A stretch of DNA of 43,157 nt from Escherichia phage vB_EcoS_MM01. The stretch is from sequence record MK373793.1. One strand, given 5' to 3'. Made by a program: the position numbers and the translations under genes. Of the stretch, positions 410-43,117 are shown in pieces; position 1 is the first letter of the stretch; the number at the start of each line of letters is the position of its first letter. Below the pieces are notes generated by a model. That model searched no databases and was not told the origin of the DNA. It saw only the letters and a program-made list of their open reading frames with translations.

Positions 410-485
410 ACAAACTACAGCCTATCAATACTGGGCTAATTGATAGTTAAGCGTAAAAGTATAGAATATTTACACCAAATTATAT

Positions 486-544: not shown

Positions 545-1048
545 GTGAACGAAACTAAGACGCTGGGCGAAGTGATTCGCGAGATGGTAAAGATGGCCCT
601 GAAGTCTGAAGACAAGACATTCAGAGCTCCATTAGAGCACATAACTGAACTTGTGCTGGGGAAGGATTGTCGAGATGAGTTTGGGACGCTGCCAAGGCTT
701 GAGCAACTAAAAAGCTCTTACGTATATAACACTACGGCACGAATGGAAGAGCTGCGCGAAGCTGGGCTGAAAGCAACTCACAGCATTGAGTCTATAGATT
801 ATATGAATGACTTCGGGACTGGCTATATAAAAGGAGAGCCGGAGCTAGTAATTACACTTAAGCCAGGCACCACAAACATAGGCACTCGCAAAAAGGCAGT
901 CGAGCAAACAAAGATCGTAGCTATCGAAGAGTTCAAATCTAAGCTGCTTAAGTTCTCACCTAGCACAATTGAACTTGAAGGTGAGATGTTAGAAGGTGCA
1001 CTGTATGCAATAAATGCTTATCGCGAAATGATTAAGGAGATGAACTAA
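545..1048 (+). CDS. hypothetical early protein
   Basis: ORF-track frame 500..1048; GTG at 545 is 9 nt after GGAGG, whereas ATG at 500 lies inside the promoter spacer; no recognisable motif. Confidence 0.5.
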   Translation: MNETKTLGEVIREMVKMALKSEDKTFRAPLEHITELVLGKDCRDEFGTLPRLEQLKSSYVYNTTARMEELREAGLKATHSIESIDYMNDFGTGYIKGEPELVITLKPGTTNIGTRKKAVEQTKIVAIEEFKSKLLKFSPSTIELEGEMLEGALYAINAYREMIKEMN

Positions 1049-1332
1049 TGAGTTTCAACTATGAGGAATATTTAAAAGAGGTTCATGACTCAATGACTGA
1101 AGAGCAGAAGGCCAATATCGCCAGAATCAAAAGAACCATTGATGAGAACAACAGAATGCTTGAAGCTGAATATAATAAAGCGAATCCTCGATACAATGGA
1201 AAGACGGTTGATGAGTATATCCTTAGTAATTGCGTTAACAAGCCGTGGCATGAAAAGCACACTCGCGCTGAATGGGAAGAAGCTATGGAGTTGTGGCAGC
1301 TAATGAAGAAGCTAAATAAACTGGTAAAATAG
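1048..1332 (+). CDS. hypothetical protein (94 aa)
   Basis: ORF track; ATGA overlap with upstream gene; stop TAG is part of junction motif A. Confidence 0.5.
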   Translation: MSFNYEEYLKEVHDSMTEEQKANIARIKRTIDENNRMLEAEYNKANPRYNGKTVDEYILSNCVNKPWHEKHTRAEWEEAMELWQLMKKLNKLVK

Positions 1333-1347
1333 CACTTTTTGTTAAAA
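1328..1347 (+). repeat. junction motif A copy (aatagcactttttgttaaaa)
   Basis: contains TAG stop of ORF 1048..1332; hairpin ctccc-agtga-gggag; motif B atcgaaacga at 1379-1388; ATG 1403. Confidence 0.6.
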
Positions 1348-1402
1348 CTCCAGTGAGGGAGTTTGGCATAATAGCTTTATCGAAACGAGAGAGGGATTCA
1401 AG

Positions 1403-1868: not shown

Positions 1869-2290
1869 TTTACATCCACACTTACTACACTGGAAAGTTT
1901 AACAGCGTTAAGCATGTTCGCGTGCATTATAGCTACGAGAGTGCAAAGGCTCAGCATTTGGTTCTAGGTGGTGACATTAAGCAATACGGAGAGATAGCGC
2001 GAATTGGTAAACAATTACCTGATCAATCAGGCATAATTGCTACATTTACAACGAGATTGGGCGGAGAAATGAAAATCAAAATTACAAACGTGAACCACAG
2101 GCCAGAAGAAGGCTTAATGACACTAGAGGAATGTGGATTTAAGGTTGGTGACGTTGTTGACGTTGTTGACGTTGCTGGGGTTTACATGGATGGTCGAGTT
2201 TACATTCTTGTGACTCGTGCAAACGATGGGGTATCTGTTGGCAGCGCGGTTGTTTTGGGTGAGAATGAGTACGAGGTGATTGAAGAATGA
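1865..2290 (+). CDS. hypothetical protein (141 aa)
   Basis: ORF track; contains coding tandem repeat VGDVVDVVDV (gacgttgtt x3). Confidence 0.5.
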   Translation: MIYIHTYYTGKFNSVKHVRVHYSYESAKAQHLVLGGDIKQYGEIARIGKQLPDQSGIIATFTTRLGGEMKIKITNVNHRPEEGLMTLEECGFKVGDVVDVVDVAGVYMDGRVYILVTRANDGVSVGSAVVLGENEYEVIEE

Positions 2291-2677: not shown

Positions 2678-2814
2678 TGGATAACTACGAATTACCAAGC
2701 CAGTGGGCTAAGAGAATGATGGATGGCGCTAAGACTGGCGAAGAGGCTATGCAGTACTTTGAACTGATGAATCTATGGAAGGAGCGGGAAGATAAAAATA
2801 GCACGAATAGCTAA
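2677..2814 (+). CDS. hypothetical protein (45 aa; C-terminus NSTNS encoded by motif A)
   Basis: internal ATG of track ORF 2608..2814 (track start is TTG); coupled to upstream stop. Confidence 0.4.
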   Translation: MDNYELPSQWAKRMMDGAKTGEEAMQYFELMNLWKEREDKNSTNS

Positions 2815-2816
2815 AA
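2797..2816 (+). repeat. junction motif A copy (aatagcacgaatagctaaaa)
   Basis: member of 13-copy family AATAGCAC-N4-TTG(C/T)TAAA; motif-B-like tatcaaaacaacgagag follows before ATG 2872. Confidence 0.6.
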
Positions 2817-2871
2817 GCATTCGCCAGGGACGGCATATAATTACCTTATCAAAACAACGAGAGATTGAGAG

Positions 2872-3111: not shown

Positions 3112-3388
3112 ATTGGATTGTTAAAAAAGAGCTTGCATCACTGATTGGAAGTATCTAATATTAATCACGTAGACAGACGAGACCACTAAGTGGTAACGGC
3201 GCACGGAGCGCAACTACTAAGTCCGTAGCTCATTAGGTAGCGTATGCGGCAAATCACTTCCCATTATGAGCTTTATTCTCTTAGGGACTTGTAAGACCTA
3301 GCGCAAATAGTCAATCAAATCGGTCGTAACAAGCGACGCTGGAGCCGTAACCAGCAATCTTCATCTAGCAAGCCTAGCTAAAGATTAT

Positions 3389-3463
3389 GCTCTGTTAGCT
3401 TAATGGAAAAAGCCGCAGCCTTCTAAGCTGTTGATGGTGGTTCGACTCCACCACGGAGCGCCA
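3389..3463 (+). tRNA. tRNA-Arg (anticodon UCU)
   Basis: manual cloverleaf: 7-bp acceptor stem GCTCTGT/ACGGAGC (one G-U), D stem GCTT/AAGC, anticodon stem GCAGC/GCTGT with loop CTTCTAA (U33, UCU, A37), T arm GGTGG-TTCGACT-CCACC, discriminator G, encoded CCA. Confidence 0.85.
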
Positions 3464-8910: not shown

Positions 8911-9471
8911 ATGTTATTCGAAAAAGAAGTAGAAGTTGCGAACCTTGGTTATAATTCTGGTAATTCCCTTATTGATCAGGTTAATGAAGAATTATCAAAT
9001 CTTGTTGATTCAGGTTATAAATTTACATACAACTTCAGAAATGAATTGGATATTTCCTATTGGGAGATTGGTAATCAAAAGACAGGTCTAGTTGAATTAT
9101 CTGGTTTGGCAGTTAGGCATTTAGGGCTTTCAAAGAACGGTTTTAATGAGTTATCAGAGATTAAGATTTTCTCTTTTGAGTATGGCGTTGATTACTCTAC
9201 TGATGATGATATTGCTCGCATTACTGATGAAATTTTCGACAAAAAAGGGTACGTGCCATTATCTAGCAAGCTATTCAGTGCTACCATAGTTGATGAGTCA
9301 AACAAAACAAAACGCTCAGTATTGGAAGGTGGAAAGTATGTAACATACTATTCACCATCATACAAAAGAATTTTTATGTTGATAGCTGGGAAGCCAAAAA
9401 CAAAAGAACTAGAAACCAAAAAATCTGGATGGGCTTTGGTTAAGTATGAAGAAGTAGAAGCGCCAGAGTAA
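8911..9471 (+). CDS. orphan moron protein (186 aa), AT-rich
   Basis: ORF track; strong RBS; visibly lower GC than flanking head genes; bracketed by two terminators. Confidence 0.55.
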   Translation: MLFEKEVEVANLGYNSGNSLIDQVNEELSNLVDSGYKFTYNFRNELDISYWEIGNQKTGLVELSGLAVRHLGLSKNGFNELSEIKIFSFEYGVDYSTDDDIARITDEIFDKKGYVPLSSKLFSATIVDESNKTKRSVLEGGKYVTYYSPSYKRIFMLIAGKPKTKELETKKSGWALVKYEEVEAPE

Positions 9472-9476
9472 AATCA

Positions 9477-9499
9477 AACCTCCTTCGGGAGGTTTTTTA
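9477..9499 (+). terminator. rho-independent terminator
   Basis: acctcc-ttcg-ggaggt hairpin plus T6. Confidence 0.65.
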
Positions 9500-9554
9500 T
9501 TGCTAATTATCTGATACAATCATTAGGACTATTAAACAATATGGAGTAAATGAA

Positions 9555-11096
9555 ATGGCTTTAGAATTTAGGCAAATCCTTGCTGGTAACACAGCATCAC
9601 TTAGCCGTAAGGTGCTAGAGGCAATTGCGGAAGGTTGGCAGCCATTTGATAGAGTCCTGACCGGTACTGGATCTAATACCATTGGCATGGTTGTAGCCAA
9701 GGGAACCAATGCAGACATTACCGATTTCATGGTTCTTACTGCCACCAGTCGTCAAAAGCTAATTGATAGAGTAAACGATATCACTCACGAAGGTTGGGAG
9801 GTGTTTGGCGAACCGTCATCTGAGTCAAATCAGTTTGCAGTTGCGTTAACTAAAGGATTTCAGGGTACATCCGGTAGAGATGGAATGGCTGGCCCACAAG
9901 GTCCGCAAGGTCCGCGCGGAGAGGTTGGCCCAGAAGGTCCGCAGGGTCCAAAAGGTGACGATGGTACGCCTGGTGAAAAGGGTGAGCGTGGCGCTGTAGG
10001 TCCGCAAGGACCAATTGGCCCACAGGGCATTCAAGGTCCGCAAGGAATTCAAGGTCCAGCTGGCTTAAAGGGTGATAAGGGCGATAGGGGTGATGTTGGA
10101 CCGCAAGGGACGCAAGGATTAAAAGGTGATACTGGCGAGAAAGGAGACCCTGGCGAAGTCGGGCCTGCTGGTTTAACATTCCGTGGGCAATGGGTTCCTA
10201 GCACTGGTTATACAAAAGATGACACTGTAGTTTACGGCGGCTCAACCTACTTCGCAGTTAGCAACATTGCAGAAGATGAGGAACCTGGAGTATCACCTCT
10301 GTGGGTTGTTCTTGCCGCTCAGGGTACGAAAGGTGATAAGGGTGATAAGGGTGACCCTGGTGATATCGGTCCTCAAGGTGAAAAAGGAGAAACAGGACAG
10401 CAGGGCCCAAGAGGGGTTCAGGGGCAACAAGGTATTCAAGGTTTACCAGGCGAACAGGGGCCAAAAGGTGATCAAGGATTGCAAGGAATTACTGGACCAG
10501 CCGGTCCTCAAGGACCAAAAGGTGACACTGGACCTCAGGGTATTCAAGGTCCACAAGGGATTAGAGGGGTTGCTGGAGCGGTAGGACCACAAGGACCACA
10601 GGGAGAGAGGGGCGAAAAGGGCGATAAAGGAGAAAAAGGCGAAACTGGCGCAACCGGCCCACAGGGTCCAGCAGGTCAAAATAATACAAACAATCCAGTT
10701 TATACAACTCAACTTACCGTATCGACAAGCTACTCAGCTATAGCTATACCAAACAACCCTGGCATCTCTTTTTCAGTCAGAAGGGTTGGGAATAACATTG
10801 AGTACTCTTTTGTAGGCAACTCAATTGCAGGAAGGTATTTTGATGTTGAGGTTGTAAACTTTCCATCTGCTGACGTAGTTAAGAGATATCAGTCAAACCA
10901 CACAATTGCAGGAACTAGCAGGTATGTTGTAGGTGATCCTGCTGGTTATACTGGTGGTGGATATAAAAGAATTCAATTCTCAGCTAGAGATTGGGGAGAT
11001 AAAAACATTATAATGATTGATGTTTTTCACCTTCAGCGCCCAGCTGATACTAGTTTTAACATCGCAATTAGGATTGAGACATTCAAGCTGCCATAA
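9555..11096 (+). CDS. collagen-like repeat protein (putative head or tail fibre)
   Basis: 513 aa; two long Gly-X-Y blocks (approx. aa 107-196 and 248-360) flanking a globular insert, plus non-collagenous N- and C-terminal domains. Confidence 0.8.
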
Positions 11097-14113: not shown

Positions 14114-14788
14114 TTGAATTGGAGGTGTATTATTGCTCATTTATCAAATGGCACGCAGGTCTTCGTAGAAGGCTCTCGCGGAGCTGTAATTGACGTAACT
14201 GCAATTTCTAACGCAGTTACCCCTGTTTTAACTGTATCTGATGCGTCCGGCCTGGTTGTTGGTGACTATCTTCTGTTTACCGCTTCAGCTTCCACGCTAC
14301 TTGCTGACAAGCAAGTTCGAGTAACGGCAATCACTGGCACTTCAGTAACTGTTGAAGGTATTGATACCTCTAGTACTACAAAGTTCCCAGCTGGTTTAAC
14401 TGGTGAAGTTGTCAAGATTACTTCCTGGTTCGAAGTTCCTTGCGTTCAGGATGTATCTACTGATGGTGGCGAACAGCAATTCGTTAACTTCCAGTGTCTT
14501 TCTGACGACCGTGAACAGCAGATTCCTACTTATAAGTCTGCGGTAACGAATACCTTCACCTTTGCTCATGAGTACACTAACCCGGTTTATCCGGTTCTGC
14601 GTAACTACGATGAGTCAGGTCAGGTTGTTGCGATTCGTCTGTTCGTCCCTCGCGCACAGGAAATGCGTTTACAGTCCGGCACTATCGCTTTCAACGACAC
14701 GCCAACCATTGGCGTTAACGAAATCGAAACCGTATCAATTGCTGTATCCATTCGTGGTCGACTGTCCTCGGTTGCTGCTGAAGTCTAA
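14114..14788 (+). CDS. major tail protein
   Basis: 224 aa before chaperone and tape-measure genes; start uncertain (track TTG 14114; GGAGGTG RBS at 14121-14127 suggests in-frame ATT at 14129/14132). Confidence 0.6.
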   Translation: MNWRCIIAHLSNGTQVFVEGSRGAVIDVTAISNAVTPVLTVSDASGLVVGDYLLFTASASTLLADKQVRVTAITGTSVTVEGIDTSSTTKFPAGLTGEVVKITSWFEVPCVQDVSTDGGEQQFVNFQCLSDDREQQIPTYKSAVTNTFTFAHEYTNPVYPVLRNYDESGQVVAIRLFVPRAQEMRLQSGTIAFNDTPTIGVNEIETVSIAVSIRGRLSSVAAEV

Positions 14789-14819: not shown

Positions 14820-14839
14820 CATAGCACTTTTTGCTAAAG
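14820..14839 (+). repeat. junction motif A copy (catagcactttttgctaaag)
   Basis: motif A followed by motif B atcgaaacga at 14871-14880 and ATG 14898. Confidence 0.6.
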
Positions 14840-14897
14840 CATAAATCAAAACATACTGTATAGTTACTTCATCGAAACGAAATAAAGGAATTAAGAA

Positions 14898-26616: not shown

Positions 26617-26681
26617 TTTTGAATCCTTAGTAAGTATTTTTCGTTTCGATGGAGTAATAGTACCGCATCCTTGCGGATTGT

Positions 26682-26701
26682 CTTTAGCAATTCGTGCTAT
26701 T
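26682..26701 (-). repeat. junction motif A copy (aatagcacgaattgctaaag on minus strand)
   Basis: supplies stop codon of upstream methyltransferase-like ORF; motif B at 26641-26650. Confidence 0.6.
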
Positions 26702-27340
26702 CGCCAAGAATACAGCTCTTGCAAATCCACGAGGTGTAAGACTGCGAATTACCTTCGTCTTCTTGCTCTTGCCACCGAGTTTCTTATATTGGTCAGAGAA
26801 ACCATCATTAACATCAACAGGAAGCAACTCAGGCCACTTAAATCCATTACCAGACCAAATGCACGTCTTCTTAGGGTATGCGTCCCTTGACTTTATTAGG
26901 TCGCTAAAAAACGGGTGTAAATCATCTTCAGGCAAGTATCCACCAAACTCGTAAGGGTGGAATGTGTTATCAGGCTTTCGCCACAGAGATGACAGTACAC
27001 TGATTGGATTCTCAATCATATAAGGCACGCCGTACTTCTCAGCCAGGTTAAAAGCAACCTTGCAAGTTTCTGCCGCTTCAGTCTGGAAGTTTGGGTTAGC
27101 TTGGCGCTTACGTTCAAAATGCCTTGACCCACTCACAGCCAAATCAGTGCATGGTGGGAAAGCCAATATGAAATCAGGTTTCACATCAAAATCGAAGTTT
27201 GCATCAATCCATGCGTTAACGTACTTAATGTTATCGTGCTCAACCTTCGCATTCAAATCGCCGTAACTACCGTGGTCAGACTCGTCAAAGTTGAAGCAGT
27301 AACAAGTGTGACCAGCCTCAGCCCTAGTTAGCGCAGCAGA
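26684..27340 (-). pseudogene. cytosine-C5 DNA methyltransferase-like ORF, apparently 5'-truncated
   Basis: PDFILAFPPCTDLAVSG resembles C5-MTase motif IV (PC dipeptide) and MIENP the ENV motif, but no FxGxG motif I; frame open to 27340 with no ATG/GTG, only TTG at 27256. Confidence 0.45.
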
Positions 27341-27359: not shown

Positions 27360-27866
27360 ATGCGCGAGGTTCTTTGCAACATTCCGGCTTATGATAGTAT
27401 TGTTAACAGCGAAACGGCTCAGAAGGAGTTATCAATCTTTGGTGAGATTCTCGGTGTTGGTGTAAAGATTCGAATTGACCACGTTGACGTTGTTGATGGA
27501 GTTGTTCATATCACAGATTATAAGACCACAGCAGACGCAAGCCCTGAAGGGTTCGGTAAATCAGCTTTCTCTCATGGATACTTGGCTAAAATGGCATTGC
27601 AGCGCGATCTGTTTGTAAAAGCATTTAACGAGAAGAGGAAGGTAGTCGTTGGTCTTATGGCACAAGAAAAAACTGAACCTTACTTACCCATGAAGTACAC
27701 GCTAACAGATGATCAGCTTCGTATTGGCAGATTGCAGTATCTTGAAGCCCTAGCTACATACAAGAAATGCAAGGAGCTTGATATATGGCCTGGTTACTCA
27801 AATGGGATTACAGAGCAAGAGCTAGTTATCCCTGATTGGGCAACTAAGCAGTATAAAGAAATTTAA
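27360..27866 (+). CDS. PD-(D/E)xK exonuclease (lambda Exo/YqaJ-like), possibly N-terminally truncated
   Basis: catalytic-core-like IDHVDVVDG...ITDYKT near N-terminus; frame opens only at 27312. Confidence 0.55.
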   Translation: MREVLCNIPAYDSIVNSETAQKELSIFGEILGVGVKIRIDHVDVVDGVVHITDYKTTADASPEGFGKSAFSHGYLAKMALQRDLFVKAFNEKRKVVVGLMAQEKTEPYLPMKYTLTDDQLRIGRLQYLEALATYKKCKELDIWPGYSNGITEQELVIPDWATKQYKEI

Positions 27867-27885
27867 ATAGCACGAATTGCTAAAA
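27866..27885 (+). repeat. junction motif A copy (aatagcacgaattgctaaaa)
   Basis: starts in the TAA stop of the exonuclease; motif-B variant catcaacaacgaacgagg precedes Erf ATG. Confidence 0.6.
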
Positions 27886-27939
27886 CAAAAAGGGATAGCT
27901 GAGGTATAGTTATCCCATCAACAACGAACGAGGTTAAAG

Positions 27940-30625: not shown

Positions 30626-30644
30626 AATAGCACATTTTGTTAAG
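30626..30644 (+). repeat. junction motif A copy, orphan (aatagcacattttgttaag)
   Basis: plus-oriented between two minus-strand genes; no motif B or plus-strand gene downstream. Confidence 0.5.
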
Positions 30645-31620: not shown

Positions 31621-31675
31621 ATACACCTCCATAAACAATAAAGGCACTATACATAATGCACAGTGCCATTGCTTA

Positions 31676-32182
31676 TCAAATCGTGCTGTTTTGCTCTGAC
31701 TCTCTCTTTTTCTTATTCTCTTCCTTAATCTTGCGCCATGATCTAGCAGGTGGTTTTTTTGCTAAATCCTCCTTCTTAACAACTCTAAGCATTTCTCGAC
31801 GGTCGCAACGCAATGTTAGTGGCTTACCGTTGCTATCAAATCGCAGATCAGGACGAATGAAGCTAGCTCTATATCCTTCGCCTGTACGCTTGTACTTTCC
31901 GTGCAGCTTCTGCGCGCCTTTCGCTGAGATCATTCCGCGCTTACACCACTCAGAAACTACTGCATGAGTCACATTGGCGGCTTTTGCTAGCTTCGATTTA
32001 CCGCCGTAGAAGTTAAGAACTATCTCAAGCCTTGCGCGTAAACTTGCTCGCACTTCATCCTTCAAAGTGTAGTAGCCATAAGGTCGACTACGTTCTTTCT
32101 TATCTTCGCCTCGCTGGGTTCCGTTATTTCCATTTAATGTACGCTTGTCCACTTCACCAGTTGATTCCGCGATTCTCGTCAT
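31676..32182 (-). CDS. HTH DNA-binding protein (Cro/YdaS-like, putative regulator)
   Basis: GGKSKLAKAANVTHAVVSEWCKRGMIS helix-turn-helix-like segment; basic termini. Confidence 0.45.
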   Translation of the reverse strand: MTRIAESTGEVDKRTLNGNNGTQRGEDKKERSRPYGYYTLKDEVRASLRARLEIVLNFYGGKSKLAKAANVTHAVVSEWCKRGMISAKGAQKLHGKYKRTGEGYRASFIRPDLRFDSNGKPLTLRCDRREMLRVVKKEDLAKKPPARSWRKIKEENKKKRESEQNSTI

Positions 32183-32193
32183 TATTAATCTCC

Positions 32194-32213
32194 AATAGCA
32201 CTTTTTGTTAAAA
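32194..32213 (+). repeat. junction motif A copy (aatagcactttttgttaaaa)
   Basis: in divergent intergenic region 12 nt from HTH gene start and about 70 nt upstream of helicase ATG. Confidence 0.6.
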
Positions 32214-32282
32214 GTCGTTTTGATTTAGTGTTAGTATTGTACCCAACAAAACGCTACAACACAAATTAATAGGGCTTAACAA

Positions 32283-34278: not shown

Positions 34279-34698
34279 GTGAAGATTACAGATAAAGAAG
34301 ATTACATTGAGTTTTACCCAGGCGCTGTAAAGTCATGCCCAAAGGAGGATGACGAACAGATCTTTTGCTCTGATTGGGTTAAGTATCATTATCCGCAGAT
34401 TGTTTACTGGCATACAGTTAATGAAGGTATGAAATCAATTGGGTCAGCAAGGAAGGATGCAGCCAAGGGTTTGCTTAAGGGTGTATCAGATTGCTTATTC
34501 CTGATACCCGAATCGCTGCGTGGCAAGTACCCTTTCGGAGCTATAGAGTTAAAGAGAGCTGGCAAGACCCAGGCTAGTCCAGTCAGCGATGAACAAAGGT
34601 CTTTCCTTAAAAGCGTAAGAGAATCAGGCGGCTTCGCAGGTGTCGCATACGGGCGCGAAGGTTTTCTTGCAGCATTCAAAGAAATGATTTCAAAATAG
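34279..34698 (+). CDS. VRR-NUC domain nuclease (putative)
   Basis: 139 aa; PD-(D/E)xK-like DCLFL...GAIELK; GTG start coupled to helicase stop. Confidence 0.5.
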   Translation: MKITDKEDYIEFYPGAVKSCPKEDDEQIFCSDWVKYHYPQIVYWHTVNEGMKSIGSARKDAAKGLLKGVSDCLFLIPESLRGKYPFGAIELKRAGKTQASPVSDEQRSFLKSVRESGGFAGVAYGREGFLAAFKEMISK

Positions 34699-34713
34699 CA
34701 CTAATTGCTAAAG
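34694..34713 (+). repeat. junction motif A copy (aatagcactaattgctaaag)
   Basis: TAG stop of VRR-NUC gene lies within motif; motif B at 34745-34754; ATG 34777. Confidence 0.6.
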
Positions 34714-34776
34714 ACGTTTCGATGGGTTGGTGTATTATCTATTCATCGAAACGAAACACACAAAGAGAGAAAGAAA

Positions 34777-35558: not shown

Positions 35559-35810
35559 ATGTTGGGTTTATATTTTCAGCCAGAGCATTACGATTTAGTG
35601 TATGGGCAAAGTGGGGCGAAGTTTAGAGCGATACCTATTTCTGATTGGTTTCCTCCTGACTATCTTGATGTTAACGCAAAAACTAAAGATGGAAAGTGGG
35701 TTCAGATTTACTACTCGCCAGCTTGCGGCAACCTTTGCATGACTGACTTGGACCAGAAATTAGCAATTAGTGCGGAAATGATTGATTACTGGTTAAAAGA
35801 AGTTGAATGA
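35559..35810 (+). CDS. hypothetical protein (83 aa)
   Basis: ORF track. Confidence 0.45.
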   Translation: MLGLYFQPEHYDLVYGQSGAKFRAIPISDWFPPDYLDVNAKTKDGKWVQIYYSPACGNLCMTDLDQKLAISAEMIDYWLKEVE

Positions 35811-35891: not shown

Positions 35892-37028
35892 ATGGCAACT
35901 GCAAAAATTACCAACGAAGAGCTGCGCGAAGAGCTGGCGAACGGTATGACTAACAAAGCAATCGCAGAGAAGTACGGTATGAATATTCGCAATGTTGAGT
36001 TGCGTCGTAGTAAATTGGCAAAGAGTGGAGAATTGCACGGAAACCCAGGCATCAAAAAGCTAGTTCCTGACGGTTATATGGTTAAGGGAACATCAACGAT
36101 GATTGATGCCGAAGGTAACGAAAAGATTCGCTGGGTTAAAACATCCGTAGATAATGAGCGCCTTGAGGTTTTAATGGAGCAGGCTCGAGAGGCATTTTGC
36201 TCAGAGTTGCCAAAGGCTATTCCATCTGAATCACCGAATGTTAACTTTGATGATAACACACTTGCGATGTATCCAGTTTTTGATTTACACATTGGAGCAA
36301 TGGCACACAAACACGAGTGCGGCGAAAACTACGACACAGCAACAGCCGAGAAAGTAATGAATGGATTCTTTGATTACGCTGTTGATAAGGCGCCAAACTC
36401 TAAGAATGCTGTATTGGTATTGGGTGGCGATTTCCTGCATTACGATTCACTTGAGGCAAAAACACCAGCTTCAGGGCATATCTTAGATAGCGACAGTCGT
36501 TATGCAAAAATTGTTTATGTTGCAATCCGGTCAGTACGTCGTGCAATTTCTCGAATGATGGGGAAGCACCAGAATATCGACATTAAAGTTATAAGCGGAA
36601 ACCATGATGAAGCGGGAATGGTTTGGTTGCGTGCGGCGCTGGCTGCATTTTATGAAGATGAGCCGCGTGTAAGCGTTGACGTTAGCCCTGCCGCTATGAT
36701 GATGACCAGCTTTGGAAGCACGCTTATTGGTTATACTCATGGGCACCAGATGCGTAAAGCTGATACAAGACTGACTGTTATGGCAACTGATTTCCGTAAG
36801 TTGTTTGGGCAAAGTGAGTATGTTTATACACATAGTGGCCATTGGCACTCACAGAAAATTACAGAGACGAATCTTGGTATTGATGAAGTTCACGGCCAGC
36901 TAGGTAGCCCAGATGCGTACTCGGCAAATGGCGGCTGGCGCTCTCAGCGTCAAGCGGCAGTAATCGTTTATCATAAGGAATTTGGCGAGGTTGGTCGCTT
37001 CATCTGTCGCCCAAAAATGTTTAGCTAA
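35892..37028 (+). CDS. calcineurin-like metallophosphoesterase with N-terminal HTH-like domain
   Basis: motifs DLHIG, GGDFLHYD, GNHDE, GHWH in order; N-terminal TNKAIAEKYGMNIRNVELRR resembles an HTH. Confidence 0.65.
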   Translation: MATAKITNEELREELANGMTNKAIAEKYGMNIRNVELRRSKLAKSGELHGNPGIKKLVPDGYMVKGTSTMIDAEGNEKIRWVKTSVDNERLEVLMEQAREAFCSELPKAIPSESPNVNFDDNTLAMYPVFDLHIGAMAHKHECGENYDTATAEKVMNGFFDYAVDKAPNSKNAVLVLGGDFLHYDSLEAKTPASGHILDSDSRYAKIVYVAIRSVRRAISRMMGKHQNIDIKVISGNHDEAGMVWLRAALAAFYEDEPRVSVDVSPAAMMMTSFGSTLIGYTHGHQMRKADTRLTVMATDFRKLFGQSEYVYTHSGHWHSQKITETNLGIDEVHGQLGSPDAYSANGGWRSQRQAAVIVYHKEFGEVGRFICRPKMFS

Positions 37029-37046
37029 TAGCACTTTTTGTTAAAA
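37027..37046 (+). repeat. junction motif A copy (aatagcactttttgttaaaa)
   Basis: begins right after TAA stop; hairpin acccac-gaaa-gtgggt; motif B 37078-37087; ATG 37100. Confidence 0.6.
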
Positions 37047-37099
37047 CGATACCCACGAAAGTGGGTATTATTGTTTTATCGAAACGAGAGGAGATAGAA

Positions 37100-37588
37100 A
37101 TGAATTGGCATGAATTTTTCATATACGATAATGGAACTTTGTTTTGGAAGGTGAAGCCTTCAAGAAGTGTCTTGGTTGGCAGCGTTGCTGGTGGCTTGCA
37201 CTCCGCTGGATATGTTGACTTAAGGTTAAATAAAAAAGCATACTTGTGCCATAGAATTATTTGGGAGATGCATAACGGGATAATACCAGAAGGTATGGAG
37301 ATTGATCATATAAATCACATTAGGGATGACAACAGAATTGAGAATTTGCGACTTGTGAGCAGGCTAGAAAACCATAGAAACAGATCAAAACCAAAAAACA
37401 ATAAAAGCGGATTTACTGGAGTGAGGCAAACGAATAGTGGTAAGTGGACATCTTACATATGCTTAAGGGATGAAAATAACAAGAGGTATATAAAAACATT
37501 ATATTACGGAGATTCTTTTGATTGCGCTGTATCTGCAAGAGTCGAGGCTGTGAAAGGCTTTGGGTTTCATGATAATCACGGGGAGTAA
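37100..37588 (+). CDS. HNH endonuclease with AP2-like DNA-binding domain
   Basis: IDHINHIRDDNRIENLRLVSRLENHRN plus C-terminal GFTGVRQ...GKWTSYI. Confidence 0.65.
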   Translation: MNWHEFFIYDNGTLFWKVKPSRSVLVGSVAGGLHSAGYVDLRLNKKAYLCHRIIWEMHNGIIPEGMEIDHINHIRDDNRIENLRLVSRLENHRNRSKPKNNKSGFTGVRQTNSGKWTSYICLRDENNKRYIKTLYYGDSFDCAVSARVEAVKGFGFHDNHGE

Positions 37589-37594
37589 GAAGGA

Positions 37595-37858
37595 ATGACT
37601 AGAGAGAAATATAACAGAGAAATCATTGGCCTGAATGGCGAAACTGCAATCGTGGACGTATATCGAGTTCTTTCGGCTTTTAATGTGCAAAACCCAATGG
37701 CACAGCACGCAATCAAAAAGCTCCTTTGTGCAGGGTTAAGAGGCCACAAAGACTTAAACGAGGATGTTGATGACATTATCGATTCATTGCAGAAAATGAA
37801 AACCTTCTTAGGTCAGCAGCAAATAGCACAAATTGCTAAAGACAATAATCAAAAGTAA
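37595..37858 (+). CDS. hypothetical protein (87 aa)
   Basis: ORF track; embeds a motif A copy in its C-terminal codons. Confidence 0.45.
   Translation: MTREKYNREIIGLNGETAIVDVYRVLSAFNVQNPMAQHAIKKLLCAGLRGHKDLNEDVDDIIDSLQKMKTFLGQQQIAQIAKDNNQK
37822..37841 (+). repeat. junction motif A copy embedded in coding sequence (aatagcacaaattgctaaag)
   Basis: encodes QIAQIAK; motif B at 37873-37882 precedes next gene. Confidence 0.55.
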
Positions 37859-37892
37859 GTTAATATAACCACATCGAAACGAGATAAACCAA

Positions 37893-38935: not shown

Positions 38936-39297
38936 TGTTCGCGGCCTTATCTGGATGCTCGGCAACTGATGCGCTGACCGGGCTAATTGGCAGTAAGCCA
39001 GAAGTCACGGCACAGGTTGGTGCGGCTAACAATAAGGTTGGCGTTGGTGCTTCAGTTAGTAGCGACTCTAGCAACTCATCAGAGGCCACAGTAAGAGATT
39101 CAAAGGTTGGTAGCCTTGATAGCTCTAGCGGTAAAAAGACCTCTGACAATTCGATTAAGGCATCTACAATCACTGCAGAAAAGATTGAAATTACCAATAA
39201 CGAATCATCCGCGCTTCCGTGGATTGGAACAGGAGCTATGGGTCTGCTGGTTTTAATTCTCCTGGCCTTAATCTTAAGACGTAAAAAAGCCTCCTAA
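38908..39297 (+). CDS. unimolecular spanin (lipoprotein with C-terminal TMD)
   Basis: lipobox LSGC at N-terminus and C-terminal TM helix GLLVLILLALIL followed by RRKKAS. Confidence 0.6.
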   Translation: MLKRLAGLLMFAALSGCSATDALTGLIGSKPEVTAQVGAANNKVGVGASVSSDSSNSSEATVRDSKVGSLDSSSGKKTSDNSIKASTITAEKIEITNNESSALPWIGTGAMGLLVLILLALILRRKKAS

Positions 39298-39578: not shown

Positions 39579-39641
39579 TTTTGATTTCCTTTTGTGTGTC
39601 TCTTTTCGATGAATTAAGAATAGCAAAAGCCCATGATGGGC

Positions 39642-39661
39642 TTTTAACAAAAAGTGCTATT
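39642..39661 (-). repeat. junction motif A copy (aatagcactttttgttaaaa on minus strand)
   Basis: follows TAA stop of upstream gene; hairpin gcccat-catgggc; motif-B variant catcgaaaaga. Confidence 0.6.
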
Positions 39662-40005
39662 TAAGAGAATAACTCGTCGTCAGTCATCATTCCTATGCTC
39701 ATCATCTCTTTTATATACTTGCTGCCATACCCGCTCAGTGCTTCGAAGCTAAACTCAAACGGCCTTTTCAGACTCCCCTTGCTAACAAACTCACCACACT
39801 TACCATCAATATATCCAGCGCTTAACATCTTAGCGCAGAACTCCTTTGAAGCTGCACTACAAAACTCTCTGTGCGACAAGCCTGCCGCCTTGCTGAATCT
39901 CTCTGAATCCTTGTGCTTGTATATGAATCGCGCCAAATGCTGACGCGTGAAGTAAGAATACGACTCACAAAATCTGTATACATCGAGAAGAAACATCTTA
40001 ATCAC
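39661..40005 (-). CDS. hypothetical protein (114 aa)
   Basis: ORF track; GTG start overlapping upstream stop. Confidence 0.45.
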   Translation of the reverse strand: MIKMFLLDVYRFCESYSYFTRQHLARFIYKHKDSERFSKAAGLSHREFCSAASKEFCAKMLSAGYIDGKCGEFVSKGSLKRPFEFSFEALSGYGSKYIKEMMSIGMMTDDELFS

Positions 40006-41585: not shown

Positions 41586-41658
41586 CTTAATACTCCATCT
41601 CGTTAATATGCGGGCATTATATAACACCCGCTCAGATATGCTTTAACTTTTAGTGCTG

Positions 41659-42012
41659 TTATAGGTATTGCGCTTCGAATTTGTAAGTTTCGCAGAGCGT
41701 CTTAAATCCAACCTCTTCATCTCGATAAAGCTGCCAGGCATTGCCTTCTTTGTCATAAATGTAACCAGCATTCTGACCCAAACCAGAGTGCATATTCACC
41801 TGGAAGCGCTTACCCTCAGTGAAAACTTTAGCAACGCCGCTCTTGTGATTAACCTTTGTACAATACAGAGTCTTAGTTTTAATGTATTTTCCGCGCTCCG
41901 TAAGGTTCTGCCATTTGCCGTTAACCTTGATTTGTTCCACACCATCTTTAACGCGAGCTTTGAATAAATCATTGTCGCTTGAAATCCAGTTTTTACTAAT
42001 TGTAGTAGTCAT
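41659..42012 (-). CDS. hypothetical protein (117 aa)
   Basis: internal ATG of track ORF 41659..42039, coupled to upstream stop. Confidence 0.45.
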   Translation of the reverse strand: MTTTISKNWISSDNDLFKARVKDGVEQIKVNGKWQNLTERGKYIKTKTLYCTKVNHKSGVAKVFTEGKRFQVNMHSGLGQNAGYIYDKEGNAWQLYRDEEVGFKTLCETYKFEAQYL

Positions 42013-42014
42013 TA

Positions 42015-42176
42015 TTAAGCTCTCTCTTTCGTTTTCCACATGAATTTGTTTGGCGCTGACTTACGCACGATGCGCACAACAATCTTATCTGTCTTTTGTA
42101 CCAAGCCGTAAATCTTACCGTCAAGTGATGCTCGGTACACTGCTTCTTCCATCGCGTCGTAAAAGTTGTCGAACAT
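42015..42176 (-). CDS. hypothetical small protein (53 aa)
   Basis: read manually (MFDNFYDAMEEAVYRASLDGK...); preceded by motif A/B unit. Confidence 0.35.
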   Translation of the reverse strand: MFDNFYDAMEEAVYRASLDGKIYGLVQKTDKIVVRIVRKSAPNKFMWKTKERA

Positions 42177-42227
42177 TTTTTATCTCCCGTCTCGATGAAA
42201 AGATAATACCGCATATCGCATAAATGC

Positions 42228-42247
42228 TTTTAGCAATTCGTGCTATT
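42228..42247 (-). repeat. junction motif A copy (aatagcacgaattgctaaaa on minus strand)
   Basis: encodes C-terminal NSTNC* of upstream small gene; motif-B variant catcgagacg at 42188-42197. Confidence 0.6.
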
Positions 42248-42391
42248 GCGAGCTTTTTCTATCGCCTTAAGCATTATCTCGTGACTTTCTAACAAATCCT
42301 CTCGAAACCAGTCGCCGCAAGGCCAACCTTTCCCGCTATAAGCAGCCACAGTGTCAATGTCGTAATAATTGATTTCTGATGGTAGCAACAT
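42230..42391 (-). CDS. hypothetical small protein (53 aa, C-terminus ARNSTNC)
   Basis: read manually; ends inside motif A. Confidence 0.35.
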   Translation of the reverse strand: MLLPSEINYYDIDTVAAYSGKGWPCGDWFREDLLESHEIMLKAIEKARNSTNC

Positions 42392-43050: not shown

Positions 43051-43097
43051 CTCCTCGTTGTTGATGTGTTAACTATAGCCACATAGATTCAATATGT

Positions 43098-43117
43098 CTT
43101 TAGCAAAAAGTGCTATT
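43098..43117 (-). repeat. junction motif A copy (aatagcactttttgctaaag on minus strand)
   Basis: motif-B variant catcaacaacgaggag lies between it and ATG 43050. Confidence 0.6.

Follow-up and report, generated by a model that had tools for sequence, protein, structure and literature searches.

Predicted marbox-type promoter cassettes with overlapping gene ends in T1-like and other virulent bacteriophages

At class II promoters of Escherichia coli, a single activator monomer sits on a marbox over the −35 region and contacts both the alpha C-terminal domain and region 4 of sigma-70, substituting for the recognition of a −35 element. The marbox, to which the stress activators MarA, SoxS and Rob bind, has the consensus gcactaattgctaaa in MarA chromatin immunoprecipitation sequencing (ChIP-seq) (PMC5684230). 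In class II promoters the box is oriented forward and overlaps the −35 (PMC12052159), as in the archetype micF, where its centre lies at −41.5 (PMC9638938). The cryo-electron microscopy structure of Rob at micF reveals contacts with G at −47 and A at −45 of the GCAC site, with sigma region 4 held off the −35 (PMC9178005). The subject of this report is a repeated motif of the same layout in Escherichia phage vB_EcoS_MM01 (MK373793.1; the whole 43,157-nucleotide stretch is called the window below), whose copies also lie at, or contain, the stop codons of upstream genes.

The repeat itself has been reported before. The 2024 re-annotation of phage TLS describes 21 copies of a 21-nt repeat, aaATAGCACnnnTTGnTAAAA, out of which 18 are not wholly within genes; they are co-oriented with transcription, lie about 76 nt before start codons and have similar counterparts in T1, Rtp and Rogue1 (PMC11447400). 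Stoperators, enhancer sites or UP elements were proposed for them, and their function was listed as an open question (PMC11447400). Consensus, orientation and distance to start codons (66–88 nt from marbox start to ATG in the window, about 76 in TLS) identify the TLS repeat as the same element as the motif described here. In the TLS paper the repeats are called intergenic, and neither the marbox nor the constant distance to a −10 nor the overlap with upstream stop codons is reported there (PMC11447400). In a literature search that left most subscription journals outside, no link of these repeats, or of any phage, to the marbox was found; the class II marbox promoter is a known kind, newly recognised here in phage.

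The window is the genome of a T1-like siphovirus of the family Drexlerviridae, collinear with Rtp, T1 and TLS, and its nearest record is Escherichia phage ACG-M12 (87–89% identity over about 60–87% of two query segments). At 2797–2816 it reads AATAGCACGAATAGCTAAAA, with a TAG at motif positions 3–5 and a TAA in GCTAAA, exactly as the original prediction had it. The 20-mer has six copies at three mismatches or fewer (0.00 expected) and the looser pattern TAGCACNAATWGCTAAA has 18 (1.17 expected); 15 window copies are also accompanied by a −10 hexamer and belong to a longer conserved unit (Table 1). Fifteen bases of the motif, GCAC-N3-TTG-Y-TAAA, match the E. coli marbox, the flanked form being A-T-A-GCAC-N3-TTG-Y-TAAA. 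The copy at 34696 agrees with the published consensus at 15 of 15 positions (GCACTAATTGCTAAA) and the other copies at 13–14 of 15 (the consensus is also given as gcannwwntgnnaaa). A weight matrix made only from the 29 E. coli MarA ChIP-seq sites of PMC5684230 places the motif copies at the top of the window, with 16.9–19.5 bits, whereas the E. coli sites themselves reach 19.5 at most, with a median of 13.6; it finds 19 matches in the window against 1.3 in resampled sequence. In phage lambda, used as a control, there are three weak matches, none with a −10. The consensus of 106 cassettes is aATAGCACtaATTGcTAAA, which is tighter than that of E. coli: its ATA flank is fixed, positions 4 and 12 are C and T, and the centres fall into three discrete types.

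Each cassette extends over about 70 bp and opens with the marbox; a TATAAT-like −10 follows after 20 nt, and 6 nt beyond it comes a conserved A, which is succeeded by an A/C-rich leader (ATCGAAACGAG) and then by a ribosome-binding site and an ATG. The conserved A, 7 nt after the −10 and the A of ATCGAAACGA, is likely the start site. Among 140 matrix matches in six T1-like genomes, a good −10 (at least 5 of 6 matches to TATAAT) stands at 20 nt in 76, at 19 nt in 6 and at 21 nt in 4, and elsewhere there is almost none; 94 of the 106 cassettes have 20 nt between the 15-mer and the −10. All 15 window cassettes, as well as 109 in the six genomes, are oriented toward the −10 and the downstream start codon. 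Read from the E. coli genome, micF is GCACTGAATGTCAAA followed by 20 nt and TAGAAT, a spacing identical to that of the phage cassettes, and the cassette at 41599 also shares its ACA flank; with the conserved A taken as +1, the phage cassettes carry G at −47 and A at −45. The logo of the cassettes contains no conserved −35 hexamer 16–18 nt upstream of the −10. A two-hexamer promoter scan of the window gave 30 sites against 37.4 expected, hence no enrichment, and it weakly detects a single cassette (AAGACA-17-TATAGT, 43100–43072, 9/12); just three sigma-70 promoters were found by the TLS authors (PMC11447400).

Judged by sequence and geometry, the cassettes can be assigned with high confidence to the class II marbox promoters, with which they have in common an asymmetric GCAC-N7-YAAA box that is read forward, stands 20 nt before the −10, and overlaps and replaces the −35. 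They differ from the E. coli examples in that they belong to a virulent genome with about 15–20 copies per 45 kb, in front of nearly all operons, in that activator binding is predicted, in that their scores equal those of the best E. coli sites, and in several extras, namely the ATA flank, a leader that is transcribed and conserved, and a hairpin that most copies carry either in the spacer or around the −10. The sole clear exception to the cassette rule is the leftmost operon, composed of a DUF7174 gene (500–1048) and a 94-amino-acid open reading frame (ORF), the promoter of which (TTGATA-16-TAGAAT, window 441–468) is canonical and has no marbox. This operon is possibly an immediate-early unit.

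The same geometry bears on the idea that RNA polymerase alone reads the element, as a UP-like sequence contacted by the alpha C-terminal domain or an upstream substitute for the −35 that creates strong constitutive promoters. UP-like elements were proposed for TLS (PMC11447400), the flanks are A-rich, and the −10 hexamers are strong, many of them TGn-extended in T1 and TLS. However, the conserved positions include G/C (GCAC, TTGC), the element reaches −33, in the −35 zone, whereas UP elements, which are A/T-only tracts, span −59 to −38, and sigma region 4 could not bridge the 22 bp that separate TTGCTA from the −10, so that this reading is unlikely. A plain UP element was rejected as a candidate (G/C at the most conserved positions of an element spanning about −50 to −31), as was TTGCTA as the −35 at that distance. 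Also rejected was a sigma-54 promoter (GG-N10-GC, TGGCAC-N5-TTGCW, start 12 nt downstream), since the motif is AG-N8-GC (TAGCAC-N3-TTGC) and is followed by a sigma-70 −10, as well as a dimeric palindromic operator TAGCA-N5-TGCTA, the palindrome being broken in T-type copies and the conserved flanks asymmetric. The arms of an Lrp site (consensus YAGHAWATTWTDCTR) fit, while its centre and asymmetry do not, and this candidate was superseded by the marbox match.

Among phage systems, the middle promoters of T4, which depend on MotA and AsiA, come close in design. They also lack a −35 hexamer and combine an activator box with a normal −10, and TTGCTAAA resembles the MotA box, TTGCTTTA. The phage box described here is, however, centred near −40, whereas the MotA box is centred at −30, and its presumed activator would be encoded by the host; no MotA or AsiA was detected among 26 window ORFs scanned, and the MotA box was rejected as an identity for wrong position or composition. 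A second phage system to be considered is the stoperator of mycobacteriophage L5, a temperate phage whose intergenic DNA contains scattered asymmetric sites at which a bound repressor blocks elongation. The sites are intergenic and oriented with transcription, the idea was raised for TLS (PMC11447400), and a Cro/CI-like helix-turn-helix (HTH) protein is encoded at 31676–32182. Against this stand the virulence of these phages, the fixed register with a −10 in place of arbitrary intergenic positions, and the absence of the Cro-like regulator from the cassette-bearing phages C130_2 and IME_EC2; a stoperator role is very unlikely.

For the protein that reads the motif, six-frame translations of eight phage genomes were searched with phmmer and hmmsearch, using MarA, SoxS and Rob queries verified as exact against PDB 1BL0 and 7VWY, and no homologue was detected. 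Pfam found only a Cro/CI-type HTH and no MarA-like family in 26 window ORFs, and the AlphaFold model of DUF7174 (mixed alpha/beta; predicted local distance difference test, pLDDT, 76) has no significant structural match in Foldseek and is not MarA-like. The marbox with 20 nt and a −10 is present in T1, TLS, Rtp, ACG-M12 and Klebsiella phage KP36. Contigs recovered from IMG/VR by a pattern scan were mostly T1-like; the scan also recovered two podophage genera that are not T1-like, represented by Hungariovirus C130_2 (55% GC) and Murrayvirus IME_EC2 (59% GC). Each has about 7–9 cassettes with the same marbox, flank and 20-nt register, the leader of IME_EC2 being different, and their genes likewise end on the marbox TAG, including the portal gene of C130_2. 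In common with the window, they have only replication and recombination enzymes; the Cro-like regulator and DUF7174 are both absent from them. Because these phages share only such enzymes and none has a MarA homologue, the common reader of all cassette phages would most simply be a host protein. Over 69% of the query, C130_2 shares 95.6% identity with Stutzerimonas phage vB_SstS_STP9; a phage dependent on enterobacterial MarA, SoxS or Rob would not be expected on a pseudomonad, and the host assignment of STP9 is worth checking.

A reader encoded by the phage itself, without detectable similarity to MarA, would be an early activator or a partner in sigma appropriation like MotA and AsiA of T4, and the likeness to the marbox would be coincidence or mimicry. 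The motif is indeed tighter than the E. coli consensus, there are many small early ORFs without known function, and the motif-free leftmost promoter could supply such a factor first. Yet chance is an unlikely source of a 15/15 marbox match that also keeps the micF register exactly, the right-end promoter, presumably the first used, has the motif, Drexlerviridae, Hungariovirus and Murrayvirus share only replication and recombination enzymes, and DUF7174 has no match to a DNA-binding fold. A phage-encoded reader is for these reasons improbable.

The preferred reading is that host MarA, SoxS or Rob drive the cassette promoters, which the marbox identity, the register and the distribution make probable. 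A phage without its own RNA polymerase, sigma factor or MarA homologue would fire its cassettes via host Rob, MarA or SoxS, with RamA as the activator in Klebsiella. The analysis suggests that this T1-like phage has most of its genes read through a host antibiotic-stress regulator. The wider proposition, that three or more lineages of virulent enterobacterial phages (Hungariovirus, Murrayvirus and the Drexlerviridae, to which T1 belongs) leave most of their promoter recognition to host MarA, SoxS, Rob or RamA, is evenly balanced.

Several points weigh against host activation. T1-like phages grow very well in unstressed laboratory strains, and, to our knowledge, rob, marA or soxS mutants have not been reported among T1-resistant mutants. 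In unstressed strains MarA and SoxS are low and Rob is described as largely sequestered (PMC5684230), so strong dependence would need basal Rob or activation induced by infection. The −10 elements are good, and in many T1 and TLS copies TGn-extended, and some cassette activity without any activator is plausible. The tightness of the phage motif could reflect a different or additional reader. Furthermore, the podophages share the T1-like replication module, and horizontal transfer, in place of independent selection, could explain part of the distribution.

The marbox identity bears on how T1 transcribes without a polymerase or sigma factor of its own and predicts that the resistance regulators mar, sox and rob (and RamA) are directly linked to growth in the Drexlerviridae, a family from which therapeutic phages against E. 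coli and Klebsiella are widely isolated. Should the wider proposition hold, phage expression would be tied to the antibiotic, bile and oxidative-stress state of the host, multidrug-resistant mutants in which MarA or RamA is constitutive would make more favourable hosts, and hundreds of replicating genomes, each with 15–20 consensus marboxes, would titrate the regulators off the host resistance regulon.

In addition to their promoter geometry, the cassettes often coincide with the ends of upstream genes. The position of a stop codon is given here as x, the offset of its first base from the T of TAGCAC (x = 0), and the upstream gene is taken as the longest ORF, cross-checked by eye against RefSeq annotation. 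The original prediction named nine gene ends at motif copies, all of which were found as ORF ends, and it missed two more, those of ORFs 41659–42039 and 31676–32182. In a test by random placement (20,000 trials, ORFs of at least 40 amino acids, x from −6 to +13), 12 of the 15 copies have the stop of a co-directional upstream ORF, against a random mean of 0.95 and a maximum of 6. Conserved, real genes are among those ending on motif stops, namely the helicase-adjacent VRR-NUC gene, a RecE fragment, a DNA repair exonuclease, a Dcm-like methylase and the HTH regulator, and, in ACG-M12 and Rtp, the annotated TerL and tape-measure genes. A tblastn comparison of all window ORFs with close relatives did not help to call genes, since at 85–95% DNA identity all frames alike are conserved.

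The prediction had further proposed translating the genes that end near the motif in related phages, and there the stop pattern proved general, while the tails differ between orthologues. In the six genomes, 82 of 94 cassettes with a co-directional upstream ORF have its stop in or at the motif: the TAG at x = 0 in 35, a stop up to six bases upstream in 27 and one inside the motif in 20, of which 16 use the distal TAA. Of the remainder, four are read through and eight have the ORF end 26–50 nt upstream of the motif. Among about 490 distinct IMG/VR cassettes with an upstream ORF, the stop is at x = 0 in 253, at −4 in 47, at −3 in 41 and at +13 in 48. The RefSeq annotation of ACG-M12, compared by eye, is consistent with this pattern at 15 of 19 cassettes. 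By frame, the upstream ORFs are distributed 48/20/18, with the TAG frame in excess (chi-square p = 5e-5, a value that overstates significance, as related cassettes are not independent). The bias may come from selection against translating into the promoter or from recombination within the repeated cassette.

Recombination is also the basis of another explanation, in which the identical 60–70-bp cassettes are linkers that let modules swap, such as HNH genes with their own cassette, and in this way leave gene ends in the motif. The gene content between cassettes varies among relatives, in five genomes a T-type cassette precedes each of the HNH genes that share an N-terminus, and the excess at x = 0 is strong (35/94 in the six genomes, 253/~490 in IMG/VR). 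The fixed −10 register and the marbox identity are left unexplained by it, and as a secondary effect it is compatible with the promoter role; as the primary account it is very unlikely.

The prediction had viewed the motif as a frame-independent terminator, which does not hold. The core closes two frames only, one by the tandem TAA (−3) and TAG (0) and the second by the TAA (+13); the third, ATA GCA CGA ATT GCT AAA, stays open unless a non-conserved T is present at −4, before the AAA flank. Four cases of read-through occur in the six genomes, two of them in the window. ORF 37595–37858 passes through the marbox in the open frame. ORF 1865–2290 (141 codons) crosses a degenerate cassette in frame 2, with GCGC for GCAC and TTGG for TTGC, and continues in frame into the downstream ATG at 2069; its counterparts in ACG-M12, gp72 and gp71, are separate genes with an intact cassette between them. 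A TAA preceding the motif had been claimed at three places: the one at 37026 is in the frame of the TAG, whereas those at 27864 and 39661 (TAAA-TAG) begin at x = −4, a base ahead of the position stated and in a frame different from that of the TAG.

As for the short peptide said to be fused onto unrelated proteins, NSTNC, NSTFC and NSTNS do recur and are encoded by the motif, and the three distal-TAA ORFs at 2812, 26684 and 42230 end in NSTNS, NSTNC and NSTNC as described. They are not a conserved protein feature, since orthologues end differently. The HTH regulator ends in NSTI in the window and ACG-M12, KAKE in Rtp, NSIFS in T1 and STDC in TLS, and before the motif in KP36; the Dcm-like protein ends in NSTNC at x = 13 in the window, and its TLS homologue ends on the TAG at x = 0. 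The fourth tail, NSTFC at 43100, is doubtful: the sequence does translate so, but the ORF runs off the window with 15 codons inside, and its equivalent is unannotated in ACG-M12 and Rtp, so that it is probably not a gene. A frame-independent translation terminator selected for adding a functional C-terminal peptide, NSTNC, would draw on stops in or at the motif far above chance and on distal-TAA endings in 16 cases in six genomes and 48 IMG/VR loci. Nevertheless, only two frames are closed and read-through exists, orthologues have different tails or none, the tail sequence just tracks the centre type (GAA gives N, TTT gives F), and conservation is the same in motif copies that are untranslated or translated in a different frame, including those at 14822, 32196 and 43115, which have no upstream gene. 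Such a selected function is hardly credible. In the six genomes and the IMG/VR loci, translated copies with a distal TAA stop have the GAA centre in 11 of 18 cases, and untranslated copies have TTT in 32 of 70; the difference could reflect avoidance of the NSTFC tail or shared ancestry.

The fixed −10 register and the marbox identity instead establish the motif as conserved at the DNA level, as a predicted promoter element, with the supply of stops a consequence of genes packing against it. Packing would be maximally tight: upstream genes would extend up to the cassette edge and end on the first stop in frame, be it the TAG of the 5′ edge, a TAA or TGA just before it, or the TAA of GCTAAA, the last of which would leave a five-residue tail of the NSTNC type. 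Stop supply and tail would then be side effects and not a selected function, because orthologues end at different marbox positions. Compact genomes such as T7 offer a parallel in the class II and III promoters, which abut or overlap the end of the preceding gene, with stops next to or inside the conserved sequence. In the present case, by comparison, the TAG of ATAGCAC belongs to the conserved element and is used by about one third of upstream genes, and a second internal stop yields the recurrent five-residue tail. For annotation, this means that −35/−10 scanners miss these promoters, that gene ends overlap them, and that amber stops and NSTNC-type tails in these phages would be by-products of promoters.

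Table 1. Cassettes of the window, with stop positions of upstream ORFs given as x (T of TAGCAC = 0) and scores from the MarA matrix.
Cassette	Strand	Marbox	−10 hexamer	Leader	Score (bits)	Upstream ORF and stop	Downstream gene or remark
1329..1389	+	ATAGCACTTTTTGTTAAAAC (1329–1348)	CATAAT 1367–1372	ATCGAAACGAG from 1379		1048–1332 (+), marbox TAG, x = 0	hairpin-containing spacer
1994..2054 (degenerate)	+	ATAGCGCGAATTGGTAAACA	CATAAT 2032–2037		14.3		
2798..2858	+	ATAGCACGAATAGCTAAAAG (2798–2817)	TATAAT 2836–2841	ATCAAAACAAC from 2848	17.1	2608–2814 (+; 45 amino acids from ATG 2677, ACG-M12 gp69 homologue), distal TAA 2812–2814, x = 13, tail NSTNS	ATG 2872
14821..14881	+	ATAGCACTTTTTGCTAAAGC	TATAGT 14859–14864	ATCGAAACGAA			
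26640..26700	−	ATAGCACGAATTGCTAAAGA (26681–26700)	TACTAT 26657–26662	ATCGAAACGAA	18.8	26684–27256 (−), Dcm-like, distal TAA, x = 13, tail NSTNC	
27867..27927	+	ATAGCACGAATTGCTAAAAC	TATAGT 27905–27910	ATCAACAACGA		27360–27866 (+), TAA, x = −4	ATG 27940 (Erf)
31629..31689 (degenerate)	−	CAGCACGATTTGATAAG	TATAGT, in terminator-like hairpin 31667–31643 (z −5.8)			31676–32182 (−), HTH regulator, TGA inside the degenerate copy, x = 10	primase gene
32195..32254	+	ATAGCACTTTTTGTTAAAAG	TAGTAT at 19 nt		16.9		helicase ATG 32283
34695..34755	+	GCACTAATTGCTAAA (15/15)	TATTAT 34733–34738	CATCGAAACGA 34744–34754	19.5 (top score)	34279–34698 (+), VRR-NUC, marbox TAG, x = 0	
37028..37088	+	ATAGCACTTTTTGTTAAAAC	TATTAT 37066–37071	ATCGAAACGAG		35892–37028 (+), exonuclease, TAA, x = −3	HNH endonuclease gene
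37823..37883	+	ATAGCACAAATTGCTAAAGA	TAATAT 37861–37866	ATCGAAACGAG	18.7	37595–37858 (+), read-through to x = 32	ATG 37893
39600..39660	−	ATAGCACTTTTTGTTAAAAG	TATTCT	ATCGAAAAGAG		39661–40005 (−), TAA, x = −4	terminator-like hairpin 39646–39624 (z −4.4)
41599..41659	−	ACAGCACTAAAAGTTAAAGC	TATAAT 41616–41621		17.1	41659–42039 (−), TAA, x = −3	DNA helicase ATG 41585
42186..42246	−	ATAGCACGAATTGCTAAAAG	TATTAT 42203–42208	ATCGAGACGGG	18.8	42230–42391 (−), distal TAA, x = 13, tail NSTNC	ATG 42176
43055..43116 (right end)	−	ATAGCACTTTTTGCTAAAGA	TATAGT at 21 nt	ATCAACAACGA	17.5		ATG 43050

The major tail gene (14114–14788) ends 36 nt before the cassette at 14821, with a terminator hairpin between the two, and no real gene takes its stop from this copy. 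The cassette at 32195 lies in a divergent intergenic region without a real co-directional gene upstream.

Many cassettes fold. In 53 of 89, the sequence from the end of the marbox to about +2 forms a hairpin far more stable than shuffles (z < −2). Stem sequences vary, and the sense strand exceeds the antisense in stability (p = 2.6e-7), an indication that the fold belongs to the RNA of read-through transcripts. Examples are found at 27887–27916, 31643–31667 (−), 37048–37069 and 39624–39646 (−), at 41980–42007 of the related genome L003, and at many other sites. One type lies in the spacer and resembles an intrinsic terminator with the T-rich −10 as its tail, as at 37048–37069 (z −5.2), and such hairpins are rho-independent terminators according to the T1 annotation. 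The other type brackets the −10, closes immediately before the presumed +1 and is not followed by a U tract; at the cassette at 27867, GGGATA...TATCCC (27887–27916) encloses the −10 in this way (z −5.7). Terminators nested in promoters would fit the “transcripton” layout proposed for T1. At the cassette at 34696, the spacer segment 34714–34724, CGTTTCGATG, is the exact reverse complement of the conserved leader CATCGAAACG at 34744–34754, and the two form a 10-bp inverted repeat flanking the −10 hexamer.

HNH genes with the N-terminus MNWH... each stand after their own T-type cassette with a terminator-like hairpin, in the window at 37028–37588 and in relatives at 39123 (L001), 6317 and 21394 (L002), 41957 (L003) and 48194 (L004). 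Their positions differ among phages, as if cassette and gene had moved together.

Some matches to the marbox stand apart from the cassettes. Two good orphan matches, at 30628–30644 (+) and 35759–35775 (−), have no −10 in register and are opposed to the local genes; the former, situated between the genes for the tail fibre and the primase, is conserved in ACG-M12, Rtp and T1. A degenerate motif-like sequence at 3366–3382, TAGCAAGCCTAGCTAAA, also has no −10 in register, and a tRNA lies just downstream (3389–3460; 64.6 bits in Rfam, tRNA-Arg by the ACG-M12 annotation). The Rfam scan of the window returned nothing but this tRNA.

Finally, a segment of about 2.2 kb at 8911–11096, from the head protease region to the major capsid gene, is without an equivalent in any of ACG-M12, Rtp, T1 and TLS. 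It encodes a 186-amino-acid ORF without family and a 513-amino-acid protein with collagen triple-helix repeats and DUF1737, which is possibly a head fibre.

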